A stretch of DNA of 60,695 nucleotides, from IMG/VR virus record IMGVR_UViG_3300044957_001172, positions 1 to 60,695 of that record; one strand, given 5' to 3'. The position numbers and the translations under genes were made by a program. Under the pieces are notes generated by a model. That model did no database searches. It saw only the letters and a program-made list of their open reading frames with translations, and was not told where the DNA came from. Source of the stretch: a virus. Its lineage: Duplodnaviria; Caudoviricetes. Of the stretch, positions 20,701-54,225 are shown in pieces (the stretch's first letter is position 1; each line of letters starts with the position of its first letter).

Positions 20701-21711
20701 ATCAATCTGATCATTGGCTCTAGACCTTACAGAATATATAGATTTTATATTTTTAAAAACACTATTATAAATTACATTATTTCCAATAACAGCTTCAATT
20801 TTTGTCCATAATGTTGAATACCCGCCATCGCTATCTAGTTGCCATAGCCATACATCAGAATCATTTATATTAGGAGTATTAACGCCTATTATTTCATTTG
20901 GTAACGGATTATTAACACTAAAACTGCTTACATTTAGTGTACCTTGTTTAAAATGAAAGAAAAATCCTGTGTTAGGACTAGCACTTCCTCTATTGTCATT
21001 TTGGTATAAAAATGATAAAGGATTCAAAGGTTTAGGAGGTAACTCATAAACATAATCTTTATCCTGAAAGGTACAACTTATGATATCAAAAGACATGTTA
21101 GTACCATCAATAGACGTTCCAAAATTGAATATAGGAACGTCTTCATTATCAGTATTAATTACATAAAGTTCGTTAACTATTCCATCTATAACTTTTCTAG
21201 CACTTGATCTTCCAAAATTTGAAGTCATGGCAGAATTCAAGATAGTTAAAAACTGCTGATACCATTGTGTATTATTAAAATCATTCCAATTAATTGTTGT
21301 ATTTGCCAGGTTATTTCCATTAAGATCTAACACGCTGTCTGTGGTAGAAATACTTATAACCTTTAAAAATCCTTGAGCAGGCACATTTCTTCTAGCATTA
21401 TAACTAATTAATTGTGCTAATCTTAAAACACTGTCCTTACGTTGCGCAGTTTCTAAAAAATTTTCTCTTGCATTAAGATCTAATCTAAAACTTAGATTTT
21501 GTCCTAGATAGGCTATTAAATCGATAAGAGAAACATACTCACTGGATTCTATATAGTCGTTGAAACTTTCAGGATAATTTTCCTGAATATAAGATATCAT
21601 GACTCTCTTTAAAGTATCAAAATCATAACTTTGAAAATCCGCATTTTTAAAAGATTGATAAATTTTTTTCCAATCTTCGCTGGCTAAAATTCTCTTGGTT
21701 GTAGGTATCAT
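17743..21711 (-). CDS. Baseplate wedge subunit, T4 gp6-like
   Basis: N-terminal DFDTLK...YPESFNDYIESS...LIDLIAY...ENFLETAQRKDSVLRLAQLISY; ES..DI..KAP..Y..QNRMITGEDY motif; follows the gp25-like gene. Confidence 0.85.
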   Translation of the reverse strand: MIPTTKRILASEDWKKIYQSFKNADFQSYDFDTLKRVMISYIQENYPESFNDYIESSEYVSLIDLIAYLGQNLSFRLDLNARENFLETAQRKDSVLRLAQLISYNARRNVPAQGFLKVISISTTDSVLDLNGNNLANTTINWNDFNNTQWYQQFLTILNSAMTSNFGRSSARKVIDGIVNELYVINTDNEDVPIFNFGTSIDGTNMSFDIISCTFQDKDYVYELPPKPLNPLSFLYQNDNRGSASPNTGFFFHFKQGTLNVSSFSVNNPLPNEIIGVNTPNINDSDVWLWQLDSDGGYSTLWTKIEAVIGNNVIYNSVFKNIKSIYSVRSRANDQIDLNFADGVFGNLPKGQFKLFYRQSNGLSYSITPDQLSGIIINVPYINKSNQPNTLQLTLSLQYVVSNARESESIADIQLKAPQNYYLQNRMITGEDYNIGPINAGSDILKAKSINRTSSGISRNFDLSDVSGYYGKTNVFGSDGILFKEENEETINFSFSNRLQVLNSVKTSIAKIVASTEMKSFYYEKFSRISISSYRLFYKAVNRYSSESRGYFYNETGNYVVGYDLTDNDLRYISVGSLVKFVAPEGKYFDKDNNIQIIPIQDTLGFELIKFVEAAKGTYSFQDYYVKTLELLPLYTSNLPFVIANEIRYGLYRDPDYAGLKFWVDAALNANAVIDDINARTFFFNAIAQDNLDYYRSKTKEKNFLTVNQVITGFTGAEIFYELPLGGKFYIWTSVIKINGNGATLLDDNTGPIIFDVNIPDGAIPAEIVPSYNSVLPFDLENEISVQCNLFKNFGLTINNETRLWDIITNSNIDLLGNFNLNFQENVNDQNLDASWLIGFVWTGTGYTVRYRILNFIFESEKETSFFLEPSQKNYDYSTNKVIKDRIDILASNLSPKATNVSAIPLAFDRKWQIDGSIIESDGYTYPNRVKINIYTDNQNTNFDPDSFTDIVGKNFVFFKRFKDTTEYRITSDSITILDKLTSIQESQKIEQKLFYIVELGIVSRWSLPLSKLVFTDEYYARQGRSNLKFHYVHNSGTQYRVDPSKTNIIDIYILNSNYHIEYLNYLKDISLVEPKVPSIAILEQNYKEYLDNIKSISDELIFHPVKYKILFGNKADLKLQAIFKAVRNSSRVTNDNNLKSRILLAIDQYFSIENWEFGQTFYFSALSTYVMNELNEDIVNFIIVPILNLGFGSLYEIKSLPDEIFINGTTIENIEIISGVTSSQLKSNQLVITSTYGGLSSLSQRTKTTSGTPTLGGSSPSSPYYSPTLTPMATPSPSPSPSPSPSPSPSPSPGPSPSPSPGPSPSPGPSPSPGPSPSPYY
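17753..17884 (+). repeat. Hexamer tandem repeat (GGGCTT x18, GGGCCT x4) encoding a (Ser/Gly-Pro)n tail
   Basis: 22 contiguous 6-nt units read directly from the sequence. Confidence 0.95.
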
Positions 21712-22184: not shown

Positions 22185-22190
22185 TATTTA
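22185..22190 (-). promoter_or_regulatory. Late promoter core TAAATA, 4 nt before the gp25-like ATG
   Basis: Minus strand CATAAATA-AGTT-ATG; the TAA is also the upstream stop codon. Confidence 0.45.
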
Positions 22191-24509
22191 TGGTCCTATA
22201 GAACCAGTTCTTACTGGGTTTCCGTTGGTATCTACAAGTATGCCACTTTGTCCTGTACCAACTATGTTTCCTTGAAGTTGTGCAAGAAAACATTCATAGT
22301 ATCCTTTCTTCTTAATTTTTATATCTTCTGTATTATAGCCAACACTTGCACATGCAGCTTCAAAATATCCAGGAGAATTTTGATCTGCTTTACAACGTTT
22401 CAAAAGATATTTCACACTTACTTCAGCTGCAATGGTAGAATCATTTAATAATTTAGGATTGTTTATTAAATCATATCCTGTGTCTACTGCATATGTTTGA
22501 TAGTTATCTCTTCCTGTAATTTGTATGTACCCTCTGCCAATATATTTTGTACCGTCACCTGGTTGAGTGTTCCCTAAACCCCTTCCTTTAACAGATTGAA
22601 AACCATAGAGAAATTCAGGTAAATTATTATTAGGATTTCCTGCATATTGCTGAGCAAGAGTTTGATCGCCTTTAAAGACACTGGGAAATACCTGCAGTAG
22701 TCTTGGAGCACTATAATTAAAATTTTCTTCTACAGTTTTCCATTGAGATTCGCCGCCTGCTATTCCTAATAATGTCGCTACAGCGTATGGACTGGTTAAA
22801 CCATATTTTCTACATGCTGTCTTTATTGCTTCTATACCTTTTTGTGCATCTGGGTTATTTAGGTCTTTCGCAAACTTAGGATCGCATGTACCAGGAGAAA
22901 CATCTTGAGGATTAGCAGGTTGTTGAGGATTAGCTGCACCTCCTTCTTTAGTTGCGGGATTAGGTGCAATACCTCCGCTTGTTCTATTTCCTAATGTTAC
23001 ATCTGTAGCCTGTGGCGTACATTGTTCAGGATTGATATTTTCGTGCTGATCCCAAGGTTCATGTGTAGGGACACGTTGCATTATACTTCTGATATTTTCT
23101 GATCTATAAAATTTTCCACCTTCCCATCCTTCACTCTTTTTCCTGTTTGGTAGATTATATATTACTAAAGGAGGTGGGGTATCTGCAGAATTAGCAGGTT
23201 TTGGAGCAGATGCTGCAGGCCCATTAAGATCTATTCTAGATCCTGTCACTTTTACATTTCCGTTAGCACCTAAATTAATTGTTCCACCTGTACCAATACT
23301 GGCATGACTTTCACCGCTGATATCAATACCGCCATAGGCACTGGCAATAAAACTTTTTCCACTTAAAAATTCTATATCATTACCTGTTGTAAATTTGACA
23401 CCGTCTCCTACATAGTAATCATTATCTCGTTTAATAGAAATTTTAGCATTATCTTCTACTATTAGAAAGTAATGTCCTGTAACATTTACTTCACAATTTT
23501 TACTTGTTCTAATATGTAAGTTTCTGCCTGCTTCAAAATTTATGTCTCTATCTGCTCTAAAATTAAAATCTTGTTCAGAATGGATACTTATGGAATCTTG
23601 TGCAAAGATATCTATTTTTCCATTACTGGTCATTTCAATCCATGCAGTTCCTTTACTATTTGCAATATATATTAAATCGGCACTATTATGAAGAAGTATT
23701 TGATGTCCTGTTCGTGTCCTTATTCTCATTAACTCATTCTGACCGTTAACATCACCGTCGTCCATAACAAAAGTGGTACCACCTAATCTACTTACGGCAG
23801 CTTCTTTTGGTGCCATATTTTTATCTTCATATCCAATTGGACCTTTTTTACCAGCTGCTGTTTTATCTAAAGGTCCAGGTGTACTAATGCCAAATACACC
23901 ACTAGGTACTTCTCTTCTTGCACCACTACTAGTGATACCTCTTACGATGTCTTTGAGCAAGCCTTGGTTTAACAATCTATCAGCGAAAGGATGAACTGGT
24001 TTTAATTTACCATCAAGTGTTACACCTTCCCTAATAGATTTTTTATGAACTTCTGCTACTGGCAATTTCTCAACTTGATATCTTCTCCGCTGTTCTTCTG
24101 TAATAGCTACTTCTTTACTTGCAGCGATTCCTGGAATCATATGATTTTGAAAAGTATCTTGAACACATCCAAACCAATAACATTGATTGGGATCTCCGTC
24201 TATAAATATTACCATGACGGTCGTGCCTACATCTGGTGGTATCATCCACATACCGTAACTTTTTTGAACATCGTTAAAACTTTGCAAATTATTGCCTTCA
24301 TATCTAATAGAAGTTGATCCCATAAAAGGACTGCAATAATTAGCTATATATGTTTCTGCTTGAATTCTAATTCTACTTGGTAAATTTTTTATCAGTGCGA
24401 CCTCTAATCTTCCCATATAGATTGGATCAAGATGTCCTGTTATCTCAGCCAAATAAGGACCGGAACTAGGGGGAACCGAACGCTGACGCTTTTCGAAACC
24501 GTCTGTCAT
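22188..24509 (-). CDS. Baseplate hub spike (gp5/VgrG-like) with C-terminal GH19-family lysozyme domain
   Basis: N-terminal OB-fold (DP..MGRL.V...PPDVGTTVMVIFIDGDPNQCYWFG), beta-helix repeats, VPTHEPW motif, and C-terminal ES...ENFNYS...GDG.KYIGRGYIQITGRDNY GH19 motifs. Confidence 0.85.
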   Translation of the reverse strand: MTDGFEKRQRSVPPSSGPYLAEITGHLDPIYMGRLEVALIKNLPSRIRIQAETYIANYCSPFMGSTSIRYEGNNLQSFNDVQKSYGMWMIPPDVGTTVMVIFIDGDPNQCYWFGCVQDTFQNHMIPGIAASKEVAITEEQRRRYQVEKLPVAEVHKKSIREGVTLDGKLKPVHPFADRLLNQGLLKDIVRGITSSGARREVPSGVFGISTPGPLDKTAAGKKGPIGYEDKNMAPKEAAVSRLGGTTFVMDDGDVNGQNELMRIRTRTGHQILLHNSADLIYIANSKGTAWIEMTSNGKIDIFAQDSISIHSEQDFNFRADRDINFEAGRNLHIRTSKNCEVNVTGHYFLIVEDNAKISIKRDNDYYVGDGVKFTTGNDIEFLSGKSFIASAYGGIDISGESHASIGTGGTINLGANGNVKVTGSRIDLNGPAASAPKPANSADTPPPLVIYNLPNRKKSEGWEGGKFYRSENIRSIMQRVPTHEPWDQHENINPEQCTPQATDVTLGNRTSGGIAPNPATKEGGAANPQQPANPQDVSPGTCDPKFAKDLNNPDAQKGIEAIKTACRKYGLTSPYAVATLLGIAGGESQWKTVEENFNYSAPRLLQVFPSVFKGDQTLAQQYAGNPNNNLPEFLYGFQSVKGRGLGNTQPGDGTKYIGRGYIQITGRDNYQTYAVDTGYDLINNPKLLNDSTIAAEVSVKYLLKRCKADQNSPGYFEAACASVGYNTEDIKIKKKGYYECFLAQLQGNIVGTGQSGILVDTNGNPVRTGSIGP

Positions 24510-24511
24510 TA

Positions 24512-27500
24512 TTATCCTTTTCTATATCTATCTAAAATGCTGCCCAAAGGACTTTGATTGCTAGATTGGCTACCGTATATTGTAACAATTGATTTTTTTT
24601 CATATTGGTCATTTACTATTTTAGAATTGGTAATTTTACTCAACTGCACAGCAGCATTTTTTAATCTGTCACCTTTTTGAATCTCATCATACTTATTGAT
24701 ATTTGTTAATTTAGAAATAAATTCAGATTTTTGATAGACAGGAACACTGCGTAAAATATTAGTTTTTCCACTGTCAGCAATAAAATTTTGGCTTATATTT
24801 TCCAATGATCTTTCACCGAATAAAGATAATAAACTATTCTTTCCTCCAGTTCTAACTCTACTTTGTACATAGGGTATAGACACGTCTGGATTAGGTGCGA
24901 TTGAATACGGCTGGCTTGCAGGTAAATTTTTTAATTTATCTGAACTAATATAATCTAAAATTAGTCCTTCATTAACGGCTTGATTTAAATTAATATTTTC
25001 ATATATTTGACTAAATTTATCTACTTCTACAACAGATTTACTCATTACAGATTTATCCTTAAATTTACTTAATCCTGCAAATTTACTCGATCCTGCCAAT
25101 TTCCCCAATCCTGCAAATTTCCCCAATCCTGCAAATTTACTCAATCCTGCCAATTTAGCAGGATTAAATCCTACCAGCGCAGCTATGCCAAGTGGATCAA
25201 CAGATGATCCTAATAGAGCAGCAGATTTTAATGTAGATTGATTTAATATTCCTCCTAATGCATTAGATTTCAAACCTACAGCATTAATTAATTTATTGGA
25301 ATCAAGGCTAGAAACTAGACCACTTATTCTATTTATACTGGAATTCGTTAGGTTAGCGGCTTCAGAAACTAATTTGATGCCTGCACCAGCTCCGATTCCA
25401 GATCCAAAATTTATTGTTCTATTTGCATCGAGTAGTTCCTTAGCAATAATTGTTTTTGACAAATTAACTGCATCAAGTTTGGATACTCCTCCTAATAAAT
25501 CAATAGTGTTTTTAACCTTGGTAGCATTTTCTAACCCTGTTTGCCCAAGAAAAGCTAGTCCTGATGCATTCAATCTAAGATTTACCGGAATATCTCCTGT
25601 AAATGGTACGGTTAATGATCCTGAACCTGACAGAAGTCCTCCATCCCTGCCTTCTCTTCCAAAAGTTTGAGGTAATAGGCTATTAACTCCACCTAGTCCT
25701 CCAGGATTATTAGTAAAATTACTAGGGAATCCCGGAGTACCAGGATTAGGCAACCCTCTTCCAAGTTGATCGAAAACTGAATTATTATTTCCTGCGGCAG
25801 CTGGTGGAGAATAAGGGTTTTCATCTGTGATTTTAGCATCAATCTGATTAGGAAATTCTTGTATAACATCAGCAGGGTCACTAGGCTCTAAATTTACATC
25901 TATAATTTGTCCAGGTACTCTTATAACTTGCAGTCTTTGTAAGAAGTTGCCATCTTTAAAAATATTTTGAACCGTATGTACCATATAGACACCGCTGAAA
26001 GGCACTCTATTGGCATCAAATCTCATCATCCCTCCCTGTTCAAAACTATTGATATCTATAGGGTTTCTAAAATTAATGCTGATTAAAACTTGGCCATTAA
26101 GATGTGCAGCTTCACCTGTTGATGTTTCTCCATAATTTATTTGAGAAGGATTAAAATTTCCAATTCCTCCGGTTACCAAATATAAAGGATCTCCTACTAT
26201 TTCAAGTTCCCCAGTTAACAAACTAACACTATTAATCAATTTTTCATGCATTCCCCTAGCCAAAACACTATATGGATCAGTAATAGGTAATGCGGCATTA
26301 TAGCCACTAGGAGGTTTGACAGATGTTGCAGACGGGTCTATTCTCTTAGGTACGGCTGGAACACTTTGCTCTTGTGTAATATTTACAGGTTGTGTTTTAT
26401 TTTTTATTTCAGGATTTCCACTATATTGAGCTGCATTCTTGGCTCCAGGATATTCTTTGTTTCCTAATGCAGCTGGTATAGCTTCAAAATAAAGATTATT
26501 AAAATTTAATTTAAAATTTTTAACATCAACATTAAGTCCTGTATAGATATAATTATATTCTCTAACGGTTAATTTTTTTAATTTTTTTTCATCAACTTTT
26601 TGAGATTCATACATAGGTACACTGGTATAATGAACCTTAAAAGGAGAGACCACATATTTAAAATTTTGAAAAGGCTTTTTTGTATCAGGATCTATTGAAC
26701 TTTTATTAGTTACTTCTACTCTTATGAGAAAATAATTAACCATTCCAGAATCATCTGGAGTGGTACCTTCACCCATAGCCTTTATCATTTCCCTAATATA
26801 TTCGCTATCTCTTATAACAGTTGCAATAATTTCATGAAGGTTACTTTTTTCAGGAAATTGAACTGCCATAGCTTTAGGATTATACTTTACGGTTTGAGGA
26901 CTTTTTTGTTGTTGATCTGGCGTAGGTTGACTTACACCAGATAAATGATATGCATTTGGCTTAGATGTATCCGCAGGATTTATCATTTGATATAATGTAT
27001 TTTCTTTACCTATTTCAACCAATTTTGCCCTAGCAATTTTACCGTTTGAATCATCTTGCCATGAATTTTCTGAAAGTTTTTTAAATTGAATACTATACGA
27101 ATCATGATCAGTATTTGCAGTTTTACTTTTCTCATCAGACTTAATTTGTTGCTTGGTTACAGCTTCCATTAAATTTTCTAAAATTTCTTTTACATCTTCT
27201 CCTACCATTCGTATTGATTTTTTTAGAATACCGGCATGTCCAAAAGCTTTTTCATTAAACGGTACAGCATTACATACATATCTAGTGCCTCTTTCAGTAA
27301 CTTCAACGTCTAATCCTGTAAATCCAAATACAAAATATCTAGATGCGTTATCTACGATTTTAGGATCTGTGAATTGAATTTGATCATCGTCTGAATATCC
27401 AATAAAATCTAGTTTTAAAATATAACTGGCACTGGCATAATTGGTATATCCAGCGGCTACAGCAGTGATATGAAGAGCTTCAATAAATCCGTTTATACTA

Positions 27501-28108
27501 TAAGGCTCTATCACTTCAAATCTAATCTTTGTAGGTTGGGTAGTTCCGCCGTTTGGTGTAAATGCCATTATAGTTTCAATGTCTAGCCCATCAACAAACA
27601 TGTCGAATTTGCCAGGACTATTTTTATTAAATCCTTCAATCATAGAAACATCACGTTGGCTGTCTCTAATTTTTAACGATTTAGTAGATGCATCTAACTC
27701 ACTACTGCTCTTAGATATTCTGTCTGTATTTGCCTTTAAATTTTCTGCACTTATTGCTGCCAATCCTTTGCCACCTGATTTTAAAATTACAAGTTCGAGT
27801 TCACTTTGCCTATAACTTTCAGGGCTATTAACCTTTTCCTTAGCTAATGCTGCTAAAGTAATATTATAAGTGTAGGATCTATATTTGTTTAAGACATTCT
27901 TCTTGCCTGAAAATTGATAAATTTGTTGTTGATCTGCGGCTTTTTTATTTTGATCTCTGGTTGCAGTGCTTGATGCTTGTGGAGTTATTCTTTCTATATT
28001 AGAAGAATTTCCCCCTGAGTTTTTACGTTCTGTATCCGGAATTTTTTTAGGAAAAGAAAACGGAGTAGGTATAAATGCACTTTCGTATCCGTTATATTCA
28101 TAACTCAT
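24512..28108 (-). CDS. Baseplate hub protein (gp27-like position) with long C-terminal extension
   Basis: 1198 aa upstream of the gp5-like gene; LEIVGDP...FSGVYMVHTVQNIFKDGNFLQRL hub-type motif. Confidence 0.6.
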   Translation of the reverse strand: MSYEYNGYESAFIPTPFSFPKKIPDTERKNSGGNSSNIERITPQASSTATRDQNKKAADQQQIYQFSGKKNVLNKYRSYTYNITLAALAKEKVNSPESYRQSELELVILKSGGKGLAAISAENLKANTDRISKSSSELDASTKSLKIRDSQRDVSMIEGFNKNSPGKFDMFVDGLDIETIMAFTPNGGTTQPTKIRFEVIEPYSINGFIEALHITAVAAGYTNYASASYILKLDFIGYSDDDQIQFTDPKIVDNASRYFVFGFTGLDVEVTERGTRYVCNAVPFNEKAFGHAGILKKSIRMVGEDVKEILENLMEAVTKQQIKSDEKSKTANTDHDSYSIQFKKLSENSWQDDSNGKIARAKLVEIGKENTLYQMINPADTSKPNAYHLSGVSQPTPDQQQKSPQTVKYNPKAMAVQFPEKSNLHEIIATVIRDSEYIREMIKAMGEGTTPDDSGMVNYFLIRVEVTNKSSIDPDTKKPFQNFKYVVSPFKVHYTSVPMYESQKVDEKKLKKLTVREYNYIYTGLNVDVKNFKLNFNNLYFEAIPAALGNKEYPGAKNAAQYSGNPEIKNKTQPVNITQEQSVPAVPKRIDPSATSVKPPSGYNAALPITDPYSVLARGMHEKLINSVSLLTGELEIVGDPLYLVTGGIGNFNPSQINYGETSTGEAAHLNGQVLISINFRNPIDINSFEQGGMMRFDANRVPFSGVYMVHTVQNIFKDGNFLQRLQVIRVPGQIIDVNLEPSDPADVIQEFPNQIDAKITDENPYSPPAAAGNNNSVFDQLGRGLPNPGTPGFPSNFTNNPGGLGGVNSLLPQTFGREGRDGGLLSGSGSLTVPFTGDIPVNLRLNASGLAFLGQTGLENATKVKNTIDLLGGVSKLDAVNLSKTIIAKELLDANRTINFGSGIGAGAGIKLVSEAANLTNSSINRISGLVSSLDSNKLINAVGLKSNALGGILNQSTLKSAALLGSSVDPLGIAALVGFNPAKLAGLSKFAGLGKFAGLGKLAGSSKFAGLSKFKDKSVMSKSVVEVDKFSQIYENINLNQAVNEGLILDYISSDKLKNLPASQPYSIAPNPDVSIPYVQSRVRTGGKNSLLSLFGERSLENISQNFIADSGKTNILRSVPVYQKSEFISKLTNINKYDEIQKGDRLKNAAVQLSKITNSKIVNDQYEKKSIVTIYGSQSSNQSPLGSILDRYRKG
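25061..25150 (-). repeat. Five 18-nt tandem units encoding AG(L/S)(S/G)K(F/L)
   Basis: Plus-strand units of the form (a/c)aattt(a/c)c(t/c)(t/c)(a/g)atcctgc. Confidence 0.85.
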
Positions 28109-40030: not shown

Positions 40031-41722
40031 ATGTCATGGAAAAAATATTTTCAGCCTGTTAAATCAAATAGTGGCTCGTTTAGTGTAATCAGTGGGATAT
40101 CTAATCAGCATCCTTCCCATAGAAATTATTCAAGCTATCTTCCCGATGTATATTCAGGTCATCCAAATCGTTTAGAAAGATACAATCAATATGATATTAT
40201 GGACAGCGACAGTGAGGTTAACGCTGCTCTAGATATCCTTGCGGAATTCTGTAGTCAAATGAATGAAGAAAACGGCACTCCATTTAGGATTTTTTTTAAG
40301 TCACAGGCAACCAATGCTGAAATAACCGTTCTTAAAAAATATTTACAACAATGGACGAAATTGAATAAGTTTGAGCTTAGAATATTTAAAATAATTCGAA
40401 ATGCATTGAAATATGGAGATGTATTTTTTATAAGAGATCCTGAGACACAACAATGGTTATTTGTTGACTCATCTAAAGTAGATAAAATAATTGTCAACGA
40501 ATCTGAAGGTAAAAAACCTGAACAATATCACATTAGAGATTTTAATCCTAATCTAGTAACACTGGCAACAACAGCGATTAATCCAAGCAATATAACTGGA
40601 GGTGGTAGTCAATATACCAGCAATTACGCAACTGGACAAATGAATCCTAGTAGAGGAATGACTGGTGCTTTTCCTAGCAACATTTCAGGCAATAGATTCC
40701 AACTCCATGAAAATCAATATGTTATCGATGCTCGTCATGTTATTCATATAAGCATCAGTGAAGGGTTAGATAATAACTATCCTTTTGGCACCAGTCTAAT
40801 GGAAAGTATTTTTAAGGTCTATAAACAAAAAGAATTACTAGAAGATGCTATCATTATCTATCGTATACAACGCGCTCCTGAACGTCGTGTATTTTATATT
40901 GATGTAGGTAACATGCCTAGTCATATTGCTATGAGTTTTGTAGAACGTGTAAAAAATGAAGTCAATCAACGTCGTATACCAAGTGTCACTGGCGGTAGTC
41001 AGTCAGTTATAGATGCAGGATATAATCCCTTGTCAATTAATGAAGATTATTTTTTCCCACAGACAGCAGAAGGTCGTGGAAGTAAGGTTGAAGTCTTGCC
41101 AGGTGGAACAAATTTAGGGGAAATAGATGATCTTAAGTATTTTACCAATAAGTTGTTTCGTGCGCTTAGGATTCCTAGTAGTTACTTACCTACAGGCCCA
41201 GATGATGGAAGCAGTAATTACAATGATGGAAGAGTAGGAACAGCCTATATACAGGAACTTAGATTTAACAAATACTGCGAAAGATTACAATCGCTAATTA
41301 ATAATCAATTTGATTTAGAATTTAAATTATACATCGCAAATAAGGGATTGAATATTGATAACAATTTATTTGATTTAAAATTTAATCCTCCTCAAAATTT
41401 TGCTAGCTATCGTCAAGCTGAAATGGATAATGCCCGTGTAAACACGTTTAATACAATGATTGCTATTCCATTTGTAAGTAAAAGATTCGCTATGAAAAGA
41501 TTTCTAGGCATGACTACCGAAGAAGTGGCAGAAAATGAACGCATGTGGAAACAAGAAAACATTTATTTAGGAAATGAATTACCTGCTACAACAGAGCTAA
41601 GAAGTATAGGTGTTACAAGTGGAGGAATAAATTCAGATATGAATGATATTACATCTGCTACGACTCCACCTCCTGATCCAGCTTCAGAAACTATAACAAC
41701 TGATACTGGTACCCAAAATTAG
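40031..41722 (+). CDS. Portal protein, T4 gp20-like
   Basis: LLEDAIIIYRIQRAPERRVFYIDVGNMP...EDYFFP...GRGSKVEVLPGG..LGEIDD..YF..KL..AL.IP.S. Confidence 0.95.
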   Translation: MSWKKYFQPVKSNSGSFSVISGISNQHPSHRNYSSYLPDVYSGHPNRLERYNQYDIMDSDSEVNAALDILAEFCSQMNEENGTPFRIFFKSQATNAEITVLKKYLQQWTKLNKFELRIFKIIRNALKYGDVFFIRDPETQQWLFVDSSKVDKIIVNESEGKKPEQYHIRDFNPNLVTLATTAINPSNITGGGSQYTSNYATGQMNPSRGMTGAFPSNISGNRFQLHENQYVIDARHVIHISISEGLDNNYPFGTSLMESIFKVYKQKELLEDAIIIYRIQRAPERRVFYIDVGNMPSHIAMSFVERVKNEVNQRRIPSVTGGSQSVIDAGYNPLSINEDYFFPQTAEGRGSKVEVLPGGTNLGEIDDLKYFTNKLFRALRIPSSYLPTGPDDGSSNYNDGRVGTAYIQELRFNKYCERLQSLINNQFDLEFKLYIANKGLNIDNNLFDLKFNPPQNFASYRQAEMDNARVNTFNTMIAIPFVSKRFAMKRFLGMTTEEVAENERMWKQENIYLGNELPATTELRSIGVTSGGINSDMNDITSATTPPPDPASETITTDTGTQN

Positions 41723-44860: not shown

Positions 44861-46036
44861 ATGTCAAAACTTTTAAATGAAAGATGGTCAGAGACCAAAG
44901 ACGCTCTACTTGAAGGCCTACAAGGTAACCGTCGTCAATCTATGGCAGTTTGCTTAGAAAATACACGCCGTTACTTAGCTGAGGCCGCAACAGCAGGTGC
45001 AACTAGTACTGGTAATATTGCTACATTAAACCGTGTAATTCTACCAGTAATCCGCCGAGTAATGCCAACCGTAATTGCCAACGAAATTGTTGGTGTACAG
45101 CCAATGACTGGTCCAGTGGCACAAATTCATACTTTACGTGTTCGTTACGCTGATTCAGGCAATAATGTTCTAGCAGGCGAAGAAGCGTTAAGTCCATTTA
45201 AGATCGCGGCTGCTTATTCTGGTAATGATGTAGATGCAACACCTAAGGCTGCTGTAACAAGTTTATTAGAAGGTACACCCGGTAAGCGTATGAGCATTCA
45301 AATCTTAAAAACATCAGTTGAAGCTAAAAGTCGTAAGCTTTCAGCTCGTTGGACATTTGAGGCTGCACAAGATGCACAGGCACAGCAAGGTATTGATATA
45401 GAAGCAGAAATCATGGCAGCTCTTGCTCAAGAAATTACCGCTGAAATTGATCAAGAAATCTTAGGTTCGTTACGTGGTCTTGCTGCTGTTGAGGAAACAT
45501 ATGACCAATCATTAGTTTCTGGTACAGCAACATTCGTTGGCGATGAACATGCTGCTCTTGCTATTCAGATCAACCGTGTAAGCAACTTAATTGCTCAGCG
45601 TACACGTCGTGGTTCTGCTAACTGGGCAGTGGTTTCTAACCAAGCTTTGACAATTCTACAGAGCGCAACAACTTCTGCATTTGCTCGCACAACAGAAGGT
45701 ACATTTGAAGCTCCAACAAATACTAAGTTTGTTGGTACCCTAAATGGGGCAATGCGTGTTTATGTTGATGCATATTTGAGTGACACACAAGACAGCAATC
45801 AGATTCTAGTTGGTTATAAGGGTACAAGCGAGGCAGATGCTGCTGCTTTCTACTGTCCATATATCCCTCTAATGAGTTCTGGTGTGGTGTTAGATCCAAC
45901 AACATTTGAACCAGTAGTTGGATTCTTAACACGTTACGGATATGTTGAATTAACAAATACAGCATCCAGCCTAGGTAACGCTGCTGATTACCTTGGTAAG
46001 GTTGCAATTACATCTGCTAACGTAAGCTTTAAGTAA
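44861..46036 (+). CDS. Major capsid protein, T4 gp23-like
   Basis: IRRVMPTVIANEIVGVQPMTGP, VEAKSRKLSARWTFEAAQD, FYCPYIPL, F.P...F.TRYG. Confidence 0.96.
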   Translation: MSKLLNERWSETKDALLEGLQGNRRQSMAVCLENTRRYLAEAATAGATSTGNIATLNRVILPVIRRVMPTVIANEIVGVQPMTGPVAQIHTLRVRYADSGNNVLAGEEALSPFKIAAAYSGNDVDATPKAAVTSLLEGTPGKRMSIQILKTSVEAKSRKLSARWTFEAAQDAQAQQGIDIEAEIMAALAQEITAEIDQEILGSLRGLAAVEETYDQSLVSGTATFVGDEHAALAIQINRVSNLIAQRTRRGSANWAVVSNQALTILQSATTSAFARTTEGTFEAPTNTKFVGTLNGAMRVYVDAYLSDTQDSNQILVGYKGTSEADAAAFYCPYIPLMSSGVVLDPTTFEPVVGFLTRYGYVELTNTASSLGNAADYLGKVAITSANVSFK

Positions 46037-47193: not shown

Positions 47194-50100
47194 ATGTCAA
47201 CTAATGTATTAAAATTACCAGGCAACTACAAATTACTAGCACTGAACGGTAGTATTTATATCGAGTCACTCCAAGAAATGACTCACATTTCAGGCGGATA
47301 CATATACAACGAAGCACAGGATTATATTAAAAATCAATCTGGACAGTTTATAGAAAATCTAGCAGATTCTTACATTAATAATGAAGCACAGCAGTATATT
47401 ATCAATCGTGCTGTCGGTGATTATATTGAAAATAAAGCTGGTAGTTATATTTTTAATAAAACAGACAACCAATATATTAAAAACGAAGCTGGCGATTATA
47501 TAGAAAATCTAGCAAATAGCTATATCAATAATGAAGCTACTTCATATATTAAAAACATTGTTTTAGGTGGCTATATTAAAAATGAAGCAGGTCAAGAAAT
47601 TGAAAATCTTGCAGGGGCATTTATTTTAAATGAATCTAGTACATATATTGATAATAAATCTGGAGATTATTTTAATGTAGAAGCGGGGGGGTTCATAAAA
47701 CTTGTTTCTCTTACTGATGACATAACATTAATATCCCCAAGCTTAATAGAGTTTGATTCACAAACAATTAAAATAGGTATATCAGATGGTCAACAAGTAG
47801 ATCCAAAAGCACAGTTTATAAATGACCTAATACCTGCGGAGAGTGAAACATACGATTTTGGAACCGAAAACAATAGATGGAACAATTTATATATTGAACA
47901 GGTGAAATCATATTCAGAGGAAAATGTACAAAATCCATATTTTAGACCATTTGATCCTACCGATGTTTATGGTGCGACACCTGGTAATACTGCTCAAATA
48001 GAGACTGCCAATGCTCAAAGAGAAGCTAGTGGAACTTTTTTCAAAGGTGGTATAGGAATTCAAAAAGATTTAAATGTCGGAGGTTTCATTTATGGTCGTA
48101 TTGAAATAGCAAGTACCAGTTTAAGTGTTAATGTTACATCAACAAATGTAAACTTAGATTTTTATCCGACATTCGCTCTCAATACAGGCAACCAATTTCT
48201 ATTCATAGATTCTACAGGATTATATGGAGGTTTAACTTATAATCCGTCGCAAGGTTTATTAACAACAGACAAAGCAAGAATTGCATCTACACAAACTGCA
48301 ATCAGTACTATGTCAGCGGCTCTTACTATTACGGGCGGTGTGGGAGTAGGACAAGACATAGTAATAGGGAATGGTGCCTTCCCTAGAGAAGGCAATACAG
48401 GTACCATAGGTAAGGAAACATTAGAATGGGCAGACGCTTATGTAAATAACTTATATACCAAGTTTATTACAAATACTAATAGTAATATAACAATAGCACC
48501 TGCAACAGAATTAACAGAAATTATAGGCGACATAAGAGTACGAGGTGTTAATCCTATAGGTACACATCCAGTAGTAAGTAATACACTTTATGTTACTATG
48601 GATGGAAACGATACAAATGATGGAAGAGCGTTAGATGCTAGCCGTGCTTGCAGAACAGTAGGTGGAGCGATAAAAAGTCCATATTTCAAAGAAGGCACAC
48701 AAATACTTGTCAGTGCAGGATTTTATCTTGAAGACAATCCTATTAGACTTAAACCTTACACAAGTGTTAGAGGTAGTGATATTAGAACTACTTTTTTAGA
48801 ACCTATTAATAAGACACAGGATCTATTTCATTTAGAAAGTGGTTGTTATTTAAATTACATGACATTCTTAAATGGACGAAGTGGTCTATTAGAAGGTCCA
48901 TATGAATCTGGATTCAATAGAGGTGCATATGCTACAGCATTTCCTCCTTTAGAACAAAATCAAAGAATAGATTTATTTCATAGTCCATATGTTCAAAATT
49001 GTACGAATCAAAGTGGTCCTTGGCTTAGGGACGGCACTATGTTTATCCCTAACCAAACGGTACAGGTTCCAGTGGCAGTTGGAACAGGATCGTGGGCTGC
49101 AAACACAAGTTCTATAGTTGTAAAAATAAGTTCAGGTACAGTAGAATTAGGTATGGCTATCAATGCTGGGCAACAAAATCCAGGATTTTTCAATGCTAGA
49201 ACCTTGTTGTTAGCTAATAAACCATTTATACAAGAACAAGTTGTTACATATGTTGATGAAACATTTAATAGTGGAAATTTTGTTTATGATCAAGCAAAAT
49301 GTGCTAGAGACACTGGTTTGCTTATAGATAGTATTGCAATAGACCTATTACAGGACAGCACAAGCGAAAGTATTTTTGCAGGTCTACAATATTGGAGACA
49401 ATCAGGTTATGTAGATGCTATTGGTAGCCAAATAACTACAACAACAGCAGCGATAAATTTCTTGAAAACACAGGCAGCAGCTACTGTTAATAATATCGCT
49501 GCTTCTCAAGTCAATTCTGTATCTGCTAGATTTGATGAAATTTTAGAGATTCTAAATACAAATACAAATAGTTTAAGCAACGGTAATTTTGCAGAATGGA
49601 TCTCAAATAAAATAATTTCAAATTATACAGCATCTACTATTTCAGCAGTTCTAAATGGATATTATGCATTAGTTAATAATAGAACTACTATTACTAATGC
49701 TGTTATAAATTTTGTTAAAACCACTTATCCTAGTTATCCTTTAAATACAGCTACCTGTATTAGAGATACAGGTTACATTATTGATAGTGTGGCATTTGAT
49801 TTATTACACGGCGGCAATAAACAAAGTGTAAAAACAGGTGTATACTACTTTGGATACACAAATAATACATCAGAAGTAAGCGGCGAAGTCCCGCAAACTA
49901 TTACTGCTTATAGATTTTTAAAAGGCATCATTAAACAGGTAGTTCAAGGTAAGCCAGTTACCACAAAATATCAAAATTCTGTCAATCAGGTAATTGCTGG
50001 ATTAAATAGTGCCACTTTCTACGAAGCAGATGTACTAGGTGACAGATTAGATTTAATTACAGAAATAATTAGAAATGGCCCTGATGAGTATCAAGCTGTG

Positions 50101-53100
50101 GGAAAAAGGATCCCTATAAATCTTACAGAAAATACTTCGACGGGTGTGCAAAATGCATTTGATCTATTATTAGCCAATAGATCATTTATTGTTGCAGAAA
50201 CTATTGCCTATATAAATTCTACATCAAATATCTTTATTTACAATAGAGAAAAATGTAGAAGAGATGTAGGAATTCTGGTAGAAAATATTGCATACGATGC
50301 AGCGTTTGGTGGCAATCAAAAATCAGTAGAAAGCGGGTTATCTTATTTTGACGGTGTTATAAGTAGAATTGCCGGTCAAGAAGTACAAACTATATCGGCG
50401 ATAGATTATCTTAACGAACTAGCAGAAAACATAATTGTAAATGTTACTTGTACAGATCTTTTACAGGTAAGTCCAGGTGTGACAACTGCTACTTATAAAC
50501 AAGTAATAAACACTGCTTTACAAGGAGGCAGTGTATCCAGTGATTCTATTAAATATCTAAAGAATATTATTACTACAATTATAGATAATGGACCTGCTGC
50601 GGCTCCGCAAGTTTATACAAGTCCTGGACCAGATAGTGCATTTATTTCTGCAGAGATACTAATTCAAGCAAATAGAAGTTTTATTCAACTTGAAACAATA
50701 AATTATATTAATCATGTTATTATTCCTTCAACAAATCCTGGATATTTTCCTTATAGCGAGATAAAATGCAGAAGAGATACCGGATTAATCATAGATGCAT
50801 TGGCTCAGGATCTCTTATACAATACATATTATCAAAATCATAGCAATAGTCAATCTACTTTTGCTGGGCTTCAATATTGGGAACAGGATTTTTATGTAGG
50901 AAATATCAAAAACCAACTAAATCCAACATTAGAAGCCGTAAAATATCTCAAGGACTTGAGTGTAAAAATTATACAAAATATTACACCAGATGATGATCTT
51001 ATTCTTAGATATCAAAATATTTCTATTCAAAATACTTCAACATATCAAGCAGCTACATCAGTAGAAGCTGACATAATTAGAAACAATTTCAATGTAATTA
51101 TAGAAATAATTGGAGGCAATAAAAAAGGATGGTCTGATAGAATAATTGCAAATGGAAGGGCCAGTAATATTCAGAGTAAAATAAATGCATTTAATAATTT
51201 GAGATTAAATGCTGCCTATCTAGGAGCAGAAGTAAATGCTTTTATTCAAGCTACCAATTGGGGATTTAGCTATGACACCAACAAATGTGCTAGAGATGTA
51301 GCATATATGGTAGATGCTGTGGCATTTGATATGCTTCACGGTGGTAACAGACAAAGTGTGCAAAACGGGCTATATTATTATGGATTCAGCACTTTAGATT
51401 CCAATGTATATAATGAGACAACACAAACTATAGCTGCATTTAATTATTTAGGCACAATTATAGGACAAGTCATCCAAAATCAAAATGTAACTGCAAAGCA
51501 AAAAGAATTTAAGCAAATTTTTAGTTCAACTACAGCTACTATTGCTGAAGCAACAGCCATTACAAATAGTGTTAATACTATTACAAGTATTATAAATCTA
51601 GGACCTTCAGTTGCATCATTGCCTCGTGCAATAGCTATGACGGCTAGTTCCACTGCCTCAGTATTAACAGCATATGAACTGATTTACTCAAACAAACAAT
51701 TTTTAATTGAAGAAACTATTGCCTTTATAGATGAAACATACAATTCTGGCAAATTCAATTATAATGAAGCCAAGTGTTATAGAGATGTTGGATTAATTCT
51801 AGATGCAGTAACACAGGATATAATTTTAGGTGGTAATAGTAAAAGTATAGAAGCAGGAGTATCATATTGGTCAGGCGGATACAATTCCATTGCAGGACAA
51901 GAAAGCACTACTACTCTTGCTATGAACAGAGCAAGAGATGTTGCATTAGCAGTTGCTAGTAACATCGCTGTAACTGCTACAACAGGAACAATAATTCAAC
52001 AAATAATAAATCCATTTTTTGACTACGGATATGAATATGGCCCGCAAGAAGCAATTAAAAGAAACTTTAAAATAATTACAGATATCATAGAGAAAGGCCC
52101 TTTATATGCGCCTCCGATTTATGCAGGTGGTGGATTATTTTCATTAGTTGGTATAAATGGAGCAGATGTTAAATTAAGTCCTAGGGTAGTTTCGTTTCAA
52201 ACAATCACAAACAATACTTATAGAATTGGTTTAGATACGCCAACTATTGGCTTTGGAAATAATGCAACACTTTATTTTGGAGAAAGTTTAATTTTTCCTT
52301 ATAGAGATAAGCAAGTAGATATTTTTAGTTATGAATACACAGGAAATACCTCAACTTGGGCTCAAAGAAAGATTGATCCTATAGGAAGTATGGGCGGAAG
52401 TCTTGTTGACGGCGGTGTTATTAGTGATAGAAGTCCTATTCAATCTTTTGTTTACGATGCATTTACTCAGGTTAATCAAGGTGGAAGAGGAATACATATT
52501 ATTAGAGACGGATATGCTCAGCTAGTATCTGTGTTTACTATTTTTTGTTCAATTGGTGTAGAGGTAGATTCAGGCGGAATCGCTTCTATCGTTAATAGTA
52601 ATGCTAATTTTGGAACGATTTGTTTACAGGCTAAAGGTTATGGAAAGAGAAAGTTTTCAGGGCATGTTTATAATCCCAGCTACAAATCATACCCTGAAAG
52701 TCCACAAATTCCTGGATCAGATTACCTTGACCAATATTATCCAAGCGGATTTTGGCCAAACGAAGCAAGGGTTATGATATTCTTACCCGACCTTGATGAT
52801 AGACCTCATATTTCTCTAGTTATGGAAATAGAAGCTCCTGAAACTGTTAGAGATTTTACAGGCAAACTTCTTCCACAACTGAACGAACAAGGTTTTCCCG
52901 GATTTCTCAATGCTAATCCAACAACGAGTTCATTGACAACAGGAAGTATTATAATAAGTCCTATCAATACCGATGGTATTTACATTGGTAATAGAGTCTA
53001 CATAAGGGATCAATTCGGAAAAACAACCAGTACAAATATTGATTCAAATGGTAATTTTATTCCTTATAGTGATGATGATACATTTGTTACAAATGTAGAG

Positions 53101-54225
53101 TTTAAATCGGTGACATTAAGTAAACCTTTAACATCTGGTGGTTCAGATCCCGATAATACAGCACTTACTATTAATGATAATTACTTTGATTTATATTTCT
53201 GTGGAAATAGTTATTATACCGTACTAAGCAGTGAAATAGGAAACAATCCACAATATAATAAACAAAATGATCTTATTCCTGACGGAATAAATATTTTAAG
53301 TCCTCAACATTTAGGATTATCTGTGGGACAGGTGCAACCACATATTGATGCTATGACGCATCTTAATACTCTAACAAATAGAGTGATAAGCAATACAGCT
53401 ATATCTAGTATGCAAACCGGTACTAACACCACAACTCAGTTTATAAACTTACTGATAAATGAAGGTGCTTTAGCAACAGCATTTATTAACCTTAGATTTG
53501 CTGACATGATTAACATTATAGGTGCAGCCAATTTAACAGCAGCAGAAAATATTGTCAGGCCTTCACTGAGAAAAACTATAGGTCCTGCTGTACAAGGAGC
53601 AGGGGCTGCGGTGTCATTGATAGAGGCCAACATAGAATTTTTAGCAGATGAAGTTGCTGCCTACACAGAATATTACAACTGGGGATCTGGTGGTTCTACT
53701 CTGGCAACATATACGGATGACTACAAAGAACTTATTAAAGTTAAATGCCAGAGGGATACTAAAATTATTCTACGAAGATTAATATATGATATTCAAGCAG
53801 GTAGCAATTATAATATGGTAATGGCAGGTTTAAGTTATTGGAGACGACAAGGCACCTATCATATAGTTCAATTAGGTGAAAATATAACAAGAACTGATAA
53901 ATTTCCAGACGGGGCTATAGTTAACTTTTATCAGAGAAGTTATATGAGTGCTTCAGGTTATGTATTTGAATATGTAGGAGCTGGTATAGATTATGGAGCA
54001 CTTCCTCAAAGAGGTGTAGCAGATCCTAAGACAGACCAAGAAGTTGTACAATTAAATAGTGGTAAAGTATTCTTTACGACAACTGATCAAAATGGGGATT
54101 TTAGAATTGGTCCTGAGTTGGTCATAAGTCAGGCAACTGGAGTTTTAAGTGGACGAACATTTACACGTTCATTATTTGCTAATTTAACACCGTTTATTTT
54201 AGCGATTGAATCAGGCGGAGGCTAA
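47194..54225 (+). CDS. Large virion appendage protein: octad repeats, pectate-lyase-like beta-helix, tandem helical C-x-R-D repeats
   Basis: 2343 aa; YVTMDGND.NDG...RT...A and SPYVQNCT beta-helix motifs; seven (K/T)C.RD motifs; TAAATA and AAGGA upstream. Confidence 0.75.
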   Translation: MSTNVLKLPGNYKLLALNGSIYIESLQEMTHISGGYIYNEAQDYIKNQSGQFIENLADSYINNEAQQYIINRAVGDYIENKAGSYIFNKTDNQYIKNEAGDYIENLANSYINNEATSYIKNIVLGGYIKNEAGQEIENLAGAFILNESSTYIDNKSGDYFNVEAGGFIKLVSLTDDITLISPSLIEFDSQTIKIGISDGQQVDPKAQFINDLIPAESETYDFGTENNRWNNLYIEQVKSYSEENVQNPYFRPFDPTDVYGATPGNTAQIETANAQREASGTFFKGGIGIQKDLNVGGFIYGRIEIASTSLSVNVTSTNVNLDFYPTFALNTGNQFLFIDSTGLYGGLTYNPSQGLLTTDKARIASTQTAISTMSAALTITGGVGVGQDIVIGNGAFPREGNTGTIGKETLEWADAYVNNLYTKFITNTNSNITIAPATELTEIIGDIRVRGVNPIGTHPVVSNTLYVTMDGNDTNDGRALDASRACRTVGGAIKSPYFKEGTQILVSAGFYLEDNPIRLKPYTSVRGSDIRTTFLEPINKTQDLFHLESGCYLNYMTFLNGRSGLLEGPYESGFNRGAYATAFPPLEQNQRIDLFHSPYVQNCTNQSGPWLRDGTMFIPNQTVQVPVAVGTGSWAANTSSIVVKISSGTVELGMAINAGQQNPGFFNARTLLLANKPFIQEQVVTYVDETFNSGNFVYDQAKCARDTGLLIDSIAIDLLQDSTSESIFAGLQYWRQSGYVDAIGSQITTTTAAINFLKTQAAATVNNIAASQVNSVSARFDEILEILNTNTNSLSNGNFAEWISNKIISNYTASTISAVLNGYYALVNNRTTITNAVINFVKTTYPSYPLNTATCIRDTGYIIDSVAFDLLHGGNKQSVKTGVYYFGYTNNTSEVSGEVPQTITAYRFLKGIIKQVVQGKPVTTKYQNSVNQVIAGLNSATFYEADVLGDRLDLITEIIRNGPDEYQAVGKRIPINLTENTSTGVQNAFDLLLANRSFIVAETIAYINSTSNIFIYNREKCRRDVGILVENIAYDAAFGGNQKSVESGLSYFDGVISRIAGQEVQTISAIDYLNELAENIIVNVTCTDLLQVSPGVTTATYKQVINTALQGGSVSSDSIKYLKNIITTIIDNGPAAAPQVYTSPGPDSAFISAEILIQANRSFIQLETINYINHVIIPSTNPGYFPYSEIKCRRDTGLIIDALAQDLLYNTYYQNHSNSQSTFAGLQYWEQDFYVGNIKNQLNPTLEAVKYLKDLSVKIIQNITPDDDLILRYQNISIQNTSTYQAATSVEADIIRNNFNVIIEIIGGNKKGWSDRIIANGRASNIQSKINAFNNLRLNAAYLGAEVNAFIQATNWGFSYDTNKCARDVAYMVDAVAFDMLHGGNRQSVQNGLYYYGFSTLDSNVYNETTQTIAAFNYLGTIIGQVIQNQNVTAKQKEFKQIFSSTTATIAEATAITNSVNTITSIINLGPSVASLPRAIAMTASSTASVLTAYELIYSNKQFLIEETIAFIDETYNSGKFNYNEAKCYRDVGLILDAVTQDIILGGNSKSIEAGVSYWSGGYNSIAGQESTTTLAMNRARDVALAVASNIAVTATTGTIIQQIINPFFDYGYEYGPQEAIKRNFKIITDIIEKGPLYAPPIYAGGGLFSLVGINGADVKLSPRVVSFQTITNNTYRIGLDTPTIGFGNNATLYFGESLIFPYRDKQVDIFSYEYTGNTSTWAQRKIDPIGSMGGSLVDGGVISDRSPIQSFVYDAFTQVNQGGRGIHIIRDGYAQLVSVFTIFCSIGVEVDSGGIASIVNSNANFGTICLQAKGYGKRKFSGHVYNPSYKSYPESPQIPGSDYLDQYYPSGFWPNEARVMIFLPDLDDRPHISLVMEIEAPETVRDFTGKLLPQLNEQGFPGFLNANPTTSSLTTGSIIISPINTDGIYIGNRVYIRDQFGKTTSTNIDSNGNFIPYSDDDTFVTNVEFKSVTLSKPLTSGGSDPDNTALTINDNYFDLYFCGNSYYTVLSSEIGNNPQYNKQNDLIPDGINILSPQHLGLSVGQVQPHIDAMTHLNTLTNRVISNTAISSMQTGTNTTTQFINLLINEGALATAFINLRFADMINIIGAANLTAAENIVRPSLRKTIGPAVQGAGAAVSLIEANIEFLADEVAAYTEYYNWGSGGSTLATYTDDYKELIKVKCQRDTKIILRRLIYDIQAGSNYNMVMAGLSYWRRQGTYHIVQLGENITRTDKFPDGAIVNFYQRSYMSASGYVFEYVGAGIDYGALPQRGVADPKTDQEVVQLNSGKVFFTTTDQNGDFRIGPELVISQATGVLSGRTFTRSLFANLTPFILAIESGGG

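Follow-up and report, generated by a model that had tools for sequence, protein, structure and literature searches.

The 60,695-base stretch of DNA analysed here (the window) corresponds to the full length of IMG/VR virus record IMGVR_UViG_3300044957_001172, estimated to represent 17% of a genome, and carries on its plus strand an open reading frame (ORF) of 2343 amino acids (aa), P0001, at positions 47194-54225. Judging from the ORF list, its translation, matches to PHROG families and the neighbouring portal and major capsid protein (MCP) genes, P0001 is probably a giant fibre-type virion protein. It contains repeats that are almost certainly homologous to phycobiliproteins, the subunits of photosynthetic antennae, and six tandem domains plus one C-terminal domain, each of approximately 165 aa, would represent diverged members of that family in a giant fibre.

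The repeats are marked by the motif C-x-R-D, which is the chromophore motif of phycobiliproteins (PMC10151467). The first-pass annotation, made from sequence alone, had drawn attention to seven such motifs in the ORF, and the codons, the spacings and all seven peptides that it quoted were found in place. The motifs start at residues 703, 855, 1021, 1192, 1365, 1528 and 2185 of the translation, with the Cys codons at 49300, 49756, 50254, 50767, 51286, 51775 and 53746, and the first six are spaced 152, 166, 171, 173 and 163 aa apart. Seven of the 14 cysteines in the protein are motif cysteines. The chance expectation calculated from composition is 0.024 motifs as against the seven present, and 20,000 shuffles of the protein gave a maximum of two, with at least one motif in 488 shuffles.

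Searched against Pfam, the whole protein matches the phycobiliprotein family PF00502 with 48 bits (E 1.7e-12, against a curated cut-off of 22.2). The seven units can be aligned over approximately 150-167 aa, with pairwise identities of 14-35%, and were also scored with a repeat profile, A1, built from 111 units (the seven of the window together with others taken from 15 of 18 related loci) that were picked for C-x-R-D plus an Asp at position +14. A1 recovers all seven at 89-169 bits, the same units having been in its building set. All domains lie on the plus strand. R1 (aa 630-771, Cys703; 49081-49506) scores 157.6 bits with A1 and, on its own, 14.5 bits with PF00502 (E 0.036); R2 (aa 771-947, Cys855; 49504-50034) scores 155.6 and 19.6 bits (E 9.8e-4), and R3 (aa 942-1115, Cys1021; 50017-50538) 169.2 and 12.9 bits (E 0.11). 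For R4 (aa 1112-1292, Cys1192; 50527-51069; A1 157.1 bits) and R5 (aa 1288-1457, Cys1365; 51055-51564; A1 168.4 bits) there is no PF00502 match to the single domain, and R6 (aa 1449-1612, Cys1528; 51538-52029) passes the cut-off on its own with 22.9 bits. The diverged R7 (aa 2093-2234, Cys2185; 53470-53895), with 89.3 bits against A1, likewise has no single-domain match. Within 49081-52029 the best-matching pairs of units are R1/R4 (33%), R2/R5 (35%) and R3/R6 (35%), with R3/R4 also at 35%; the high rank of the first three of these pairs would point to an ancient event in which a block of three units was duplicated (ABC-ABC).

Comparison with the sequences of the PDB leads to the same family. 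A phmmer search with the whole protein yields three matches, all of them beta chains of phycocyanin or phycoerythrocyanin (E 0.23-0.66). With the A1 profile, 48 sequences are matched at E<=1, of which 43 are phycobiliproteins and five are cytolysins; the best 31 are all phycobiliproteins, with a best E of 9.3e-5. This alignment extends over helices A, B and E, placing the motif on Cys84, Arg86 and Asp87 of phycocyanin alpha, such that the Cys/Arg/Asp triad is kept in register, as the first-pass annotation had surmised. A second profile (A3), independent of A1 and built from the C-terminal 732 aa with 11 rows, matches 12 sequences at E<=1, all 12 being phycobiliproteins aligned over the R7 stretch (best E 0.032).

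The fold was addressed by an AlphaFold2 model of R6 built with A1, which has a predicted local distance difference test score (pLDDT) of 89.7 and a predicted template modelling score (pTM) of 0.83. The model consists of helices at residues 2-20, 39-50, 52-67, 76-96, 100-107 and 121-139, the fourth of which contains the Cys; residues 110-117 form a short beta-hairpin. When it was compared by VIA-align with 48,161 chains, the first seven rows were phycoerythrin, allophycocyanin and ApcE domains, with Z from 10.9 (root-mean-square deviation (rmsd) 3.1 over 128 aa) down to 8.9, although the tool cautions that with helical folds chance alone can produce Z values below about 13. These are followed by photocobilin (Z 8.9) and then by globin-coupled sensors (Z 8.0-5.3). 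Foldseek returned no match to the PDB at E<=0.001 (best 0.077, template modelling scores of 0.33-0.56), and its top 19 rows, all with E of at least 0.077, are all phycobiliproteins. The claim for the fold therefore relies on the family-specific structural ranking and the sequence evidence together rather than on Z alone. As modelled, the domains keep a globin-like core (helices A, B, E, F', G and H) with C-x-R-D on helix E, and the structure prediction and comparison that the first-pass annotation had proposed thus agree with PF00502, phmmer and the A1-PDB search in supporting its tandem array of phycobiliprotein-fold domains. Convergence, or a coincidental match by helical repeats of low complexity, is extremely improbable as the source of the resemblance. 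Such an explanation could draw on the fact that one of the seven domains alone passes the PF00502 cut-off and three have no match, and on the Foldseek E of 0.077 or worse, but four independent lines agree with one another: PF00502, the A1-PDB search (43 of 48 at a best E of 9.3e-5), the 12 of 12 matches of A3, and the top seven structural rows.

The family to which these repeats belong is large. Searching with the R1-R6 array retrieved 1607 proteins at E<=1e-3 among 8000 candidates; PF00502 was already precomputed for 79 of 120 among the matches listed, and the source names are all 'hypothetical protein'. A single-domain search gave 946 clusters at 50% identity and, among the matches listed, lengths of up to 6382 aa and up to 35 matched stretches per protein. 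For a census of the site, 272 proteins were fetched, with 3536 domain matches to the profile, 3242 of which (in 271 proteins) cover the motif region. The Cys is kept in 3172 of the 3242 repeats (97.8%), the Arg in 3183, Asp+3 in 3228, Asp+14 in 3233 and Tyr+30 in 3227. Where the Cys is missing, in 70 repeats, its place is taken by Phe (25), Tyr (13), Ser (13), Trp (5), Thr (4) or others, so that 43 of the 70 have an aromatic residue there. The same 70 repeats hold all 14 losses of Asp+3, 13 of the 15 losses of Tyr+30 and 29 of the 59 losses of Arg. Asp+14 is kept in 69 of them, with one of its nine losses there, and neighbouring columns also decay, from 85% to 73% for G+5 and from 86% to 64% for Y-5.

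The gathering of Asp+3, Tyr+30 and Arg losses in Cys-less repeats suggests that Cys, Arg, Asp+3 and Tyr+30 form one jointly selected site, and the aromatic replacements point to a possible cavity beside the Cys. Both observations bear on the rather unlikely alternative that the domains are apo-globin spacers, that is, rigid helical modules that set fibre length and conserve Cys, Arg, Asp and Tyr for the fold or for inter-domain packing, with no ligand. The number of repeats per protein, 2-31, does track protein length (r 0.77, approximately 147 aa per repeat), as expected of a length module, and the hairpin by which phycobiliproteins assemble is not evident in the R6 model. Packing, however, poorly explains a lone Cys in 3172 of 3242 repeats that are otherwise about 14-35% identical; a tight helix interface would not take the bulky aromatics that replace it in 43 of 70 cases; and the ties of Asp+3 (14 of 14) and Tyr+30 (13 of 15) losses to loss of the Cys point to a joint functional site. 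A different chemistry at the Cys, whether inter-chain disulfides or covalent cross-links that harden the fibre, or a metal, heme or other small ligand, is quite improbable. It would suit one conserved Cys per domain of an extracellular protein, the invariant Asp+14 and Tyr+30, and the presence of globin-coupled heme sensors among the fold matches, but leaves aside the exact register with Cys84/Arg86/Asp87 and the fact that the sequence matches are to phycobiliproteins and not to heme globins. Moreover, the 28 most conserved columns include no proximal-His-type residue, and genes for bilin synthesis co-occur with the repeats in relatives. Capture of iron or heme, also floated in the first-pass annotation, finds no support.

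Light-harvesting phycobiliproteins (PF00502), comprising the alpha and beta subunits of phycocyanin, phycoerythrin and allophycocyanin and the bilin domain of ApcE, thus share with the phage domains a detectable sequence homology, a globin-like helical core (as modelled), the helix-E C-x-R-D at Cys84/Arg86/Asp87 and units of approximately 165 aa. They differ in being free subunits of 160-175 aa, whereas P0001 joins seven domains, and its relatives 2-31, in one fibre-type protein. In phycobiliproteins, an N-terminal X-Y helix hairpin builds the alpha-beta monomer and the (alpha-beta)3 rings. The phage model has no clear X-Y hairpin, residues 21-38 being coil and the structural alignments beginning at about residue 29, although the unit boundaries chosen may cut helices, and it has the short beta-hairpin between F' and G. 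The phage domains furthermore carry the extra invariant Asp+14 and Tyr+30, their carrier is a phage with psbA-less close relatives, and their chromophore is putative.

A second point of comparison is provided by the bilin biosynthesis-associated globins (BBAGs) of heterotrophic bacteria, of which BBAG-1 and BBAG-3 carry CXRD and are described as binding bilins without lyases (PMC10151467; Rockwell, Martin, Lagarias 2023). According to that account, these are phycobiliprotein paralogues outside photosynthesis, associated with heme oxygenase and bilin reductase much as the phage repeats are in some of the genomes described below (G006, G008 and 10 of 12 reductase-bearing contigs); the BBAGs are cellular globins in small gene clusters, whereas the phage domains form tandem arrays in a structural protein. 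Photocobilin and photoglobin (PDB 8j2y and 8j2w) resemble the phage domains in being globin-like domains from non-photosynthetic bacteria, with Z of 8.9 (rmsd 3.0 over 98 aa) and 7.3, but differ in having no sequence-level match in the A1-PDB search. Photoglobins are grouped in the same source with BBAG-2, which lack CXRD (PMC10151467).

On these grounds, each domain would hold a linear tetrapyrrole, joined to the Cys by a thioether bond and in contact with the Arg and Asp. A lyase would probably not be required for this attachment, by analogy with the CXRD bilin-binding globins, and the pigment would come from a phage-encoded heme-oxygenase/bilin-reductase cassette where one is present, or else from biliverdin of the host. 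Considering what the sequences reveal of the site, we regard bilin binding as a serious possibility, a little short of probable. A pigmented fibre could serve in light sensing at adsorption or in photoprotection; a light-gated function is unlikely.

The distribution of bilin-synthesis genes in relatives was addressed in three sets of records: five chosen through the repeat protein (G001-G005), seven chosen through capsid similarity (G006-G012), and contigs found through the reductase. In G006 (328 kb, 92% complete, capsid 88% identical), adjacent genes for heme oxygenase and a PcyA-like reductase accompany 19 repeats, and the same pair accompanies nine repeats in G008 (61% complete, capsid 84% identical); neither record has psbA or CpeT. 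G009, G011 and G012 have repeats only, and both repeats and cassette are missing from G007 (91% complete) and G010. The reductase-based search gave 306 viral stretches, 80 of which were kept, and the 12 new contigs among these that measure 100 kb or more were all tested. Repeats are found in 10 of these 12 further reductase-bearing contigs; all five with a completeness of 70% or more are among the ten, and the two without repeats are 50% and 30% complete. One of the ten, G022 (208 kb, 100% complete), has both the bilin reductase and repeats with a capsid only 37% identical, and so represents a second lineage with both features. A short protein of 987 aa with three repeats, noted at 115001-116125 of G022, would be a minimal member of the family. 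Two simple generalisations fail. Bilin genes do not always accompany the repeats (0 of 5 in the first set, including G001 at 93% completeness), nor are the jumbo relatives ordinary cyanophages, psbA being found in 0/5, 0/5 and 0/12 records.

The cassette of G006 (162639-166202) encodes a heme oxygenase of 180 aa and a PcyA-like reductase of 224 aa within a run of genes on one strand, in the order small heat-shock protein (IbpA-like), ClpS-like adaptor, heme oxygenase, reductase, 151-aa ORF and CsgG-like protein. What hemO with pcyX or pcyA does in phages of non-cyanobacterial hosts is described as 'still enigmatic' in PMC11480375, where a globin that binds bilins is put forward as one potential partner; large freshwater phages are reported to carry ho1 and pcyX-like genes (bioRxiv 10.1101/2020.02.13.942896). 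The role of cyanophage pcyA and pebS is likewise called a mystery (PMC3037559), and in one reviewed set heme oxygenase, PcyA and CpeT are listed only for myocyanophages, and PebS for these and one podovirus (PMC10452541).

Besides the modest Z and Foldseek values given above, several observations weigh against occupancy of the site by a bilin. The census is biased towards C-x-R-D plus Asp+14, since the units of the A1 profile were selected for these residues. To our knowledge, Asp+14 and Tyr+30, invariant here, are not hallmarks of phycobiliproteins, and the chemistry of the site may therefore differ. Neither heme oxygenase nor bilin reductase, for which the first-pass annotation had suggested a search, was found in the window, which covers 17% of the genome. 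Both genes are also missing from G001-G005, as are CpeT and psbA; G001 (331 kb, 93% complete, capsid 89% identical) holds 20 repeats yet no bilin genes, as a ligand-free spacer would allow. The cassette is found in two of the ten repeat-holding records that were not selected by cassette, and in the capsid-selected set repeats occur in three of the five records without it, such that the association within the clade is not above base rate. Since repeats are common in the clade of the window with or without the cassette, the pattern is one of co-occurrence rather than of proven association. Finally, no lyase of the CpeT type was found in 10 related jumbo records, which again suits the spacer explanation.

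As to location, P0001 is very probably a virion fibre, judging from its gene neighbourhood and family matches. The gene sits in a virion structural module, in keeping with the virion protein proposed in the first-pass annotation, flanked by portal, MCP and baseplate genes and standing just downstream of the portal (40031-41722), the MCP (44861-46036) and two small ORFs. Its position directly after the capsid gene means that a role as a head fibre may also be considered. The PHROG matches of P0001, with E from 2.9e-82 to 1e-18, are to families labelled tail fiber, short tail fiber and virion structural protein, these labels being annotations rather than experiments, and structural matches in BFVD bear names such as 'Tail protein' and 'Structural protein'. 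An intracellular role, in which P0001 or some fraction of it would be a sink or carrier of bilins or of their lyases in the host cell during infection rather than a pigment-bearing part of the particle, is very improbable. Such a role would suit the usual interpretation of bilin genes in phages as metabolic genes at work during infection (in the accounts of PMC11480375 and PMC3037559); set against it are the place of the gene among capsid and other structural genes, the PHROG labels, an octapeptide run and a tail-fiber-type C-terminal domain, and a length, 2343-6382 aa in the family, that is far too costly for a mere carrier.

The octapeptide run, read from the translation, consists of approximately 16 eight-residue repeats of the pattern [YF]-I-x-N-x-[AS]-x-x (aa ~36-168; 47299-47697, plus strand) and would form a beta-helical or needle-like stalk. 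It resembles the beta-helical needles of the gp5/VgrG type, for which a trimeric stalk would be implied. The C-terminal domain (53911-54213, plus strand), a conserved stretch of approximately 100 aa common to phage proteins labelled tail fiber, is the best-matching stretch for phrog_3442, phrog_17885 and phrog_9851, each of which is matched at the C-terminal end of its profile, and is where the invariant columns of A3 are most densely packed. The first-pass annotation had also placed the array within a pectate-lyase-like beta-helix. No Pfam match was found outside PF00502, and there was no PDB sequence match in residues 1-639 (a test for a beta-helix at ~440-640) or, outside R7, in residues 1612-2343 (a test for ~1612-1830); an AlphaFold2 model of residues 1612-2343, made from an 11-row alignment, has a pLDDT of 40, too poor for a fold search. 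The first-pass interpretation is supported in part, for homology, fold, register of the triad, structural module and cyanophage relatives; the beta-helix was not confirmed.

The cyanophage relatives, which the first-pass annotation had guessed at, are borne out by a search of 50,697 isolate phage records. Among the matches listed, only cyanophages are found; the whole protein has matches in 275 records and the R1-R6 array in 180, with identities of 22-40%; CpeT is found in 66 isolate records as against the 180 with the array, these being totals only that say nothing on overlap. The giant tail-fibre-type proteins of T4-like cyanophages belong to the same repeat family and the same PHROG families, and include S-PM2p091 (T4-GC 830), a 3779-aa 'short tail fiber protein' of S-PM2 (T4-GC 734) and giant ORFs of P-HM1 and P-HM2. 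They differ in the low identity noted above and in their carriers, the window phage having a Rak2-like capsid and psbA-less close relatives. None of them is named after the phycobiliprotein domain in the record annotations. No paper was found that links a phycobiliprotein-type domain to a phage structural protein, in a search that left subscription journals and supplements outside, and in a review of jumbo phages (PMC7824862) the terms phycobili-, globin, bilin and heme oxygenase do not occur.

Five isolates can be set beside published data on adsorption in the dark. In PMC6628666, P-HM1 and P-HM2 are reported to need light for adsorption, independently of photosynthesis, with Jia et al. 2010 given as the source for S-PM2; P-SSP7 does adsorb in the dark, and so, to a lesser extent, does P-SSM2. 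Light-dependent adsorption is attributed there to unknown light-sensitive receptors or tail fibres. The three isolates that do not adsorb in the dark all have repeats and CpeT (four repeat matches each in P-HM1 and P-HM2, which also have a bilin reductase, and nine in S-PM2, which does not), and the two that do have neither. This correspondence is a pointer only, drawn from five phages of which two are of one species. P-SSM2, with no repeats and no CpeT, has a bilin reductase, so phage bilin genes must have other uses too, a further point on the negative side; P-SSP7 has no repeats, reductase or CpeT. That the array is a bilin-based photoreceptor in the fibre that gates adsorption by light, with phage heme oxygenase, bilin reductase and CpeT serving at least partly to pigment the virion, is likewise unlikely.

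In S-PM2 (NC_006820, 158000-178000), the baseplate/fibre module includes cpeT (S-PM2p217), which is found between gp5 and gp12 and 1.4 kb upstream of the gene for the 3779-aa repeat-bearing protein, with a 2-oxoglutarate (2OG)-Fe(II) oxygenase gene between the two. At 168556-173383 of the same RefSeq record, 16 tRNA features with one locus tag (S-PM2t009) fall inside the giant coding sequence, which looks like an annotation clash between record versions.

The source of the window is an uncultured jumbo myovirus with a Rak2-like capsid, the MCP being approximately 70% identical to those of the Rak2-like jumbo phages Sinorhizobium phage Phosso, Vibrio phage 2.275.O and Serratia phage BF, and with a genome of about 350 kb, as follows from the estimate that the 60.7 kb window is 17% of it. 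A nucleotide search with the P0001 ORF against isolate phages gave no match, and a tRNA scan of the window found none. Of four giant ORFs on the minus strand that were searched against Pfam, domain matches were obtained for one, a gp5-like hub protein (22188-24509) with an OB-fold (Phage_base_V, below cut-off), DUF2345 and a Glyco_hydro_19 stretch of the class I chitinase/lysozyme type (25.4 bits, cut-off 25.5). The others, with no Pfam match, are ORFs of 4283 aa (4889-17740), in the baseplate region, 1322 aa (17743-21711), adjoining it, and 1198 aa (24512-28108), and are giant baseplate-region proteins.

What is new in this family is that a known pigment-protein domain, with its site under strong selection, serves to build giant fibre proteins of phages. 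Should the site be occupied, a virion would carry tens to hundreds of bilins. The repeats would then represent an acceptor for the heme-oxygenase/bilin-reductase cassettes of phages and for the bilin genes of cyanophages, and a candidate sensor for the light-dependent adsorption of cyanophages.

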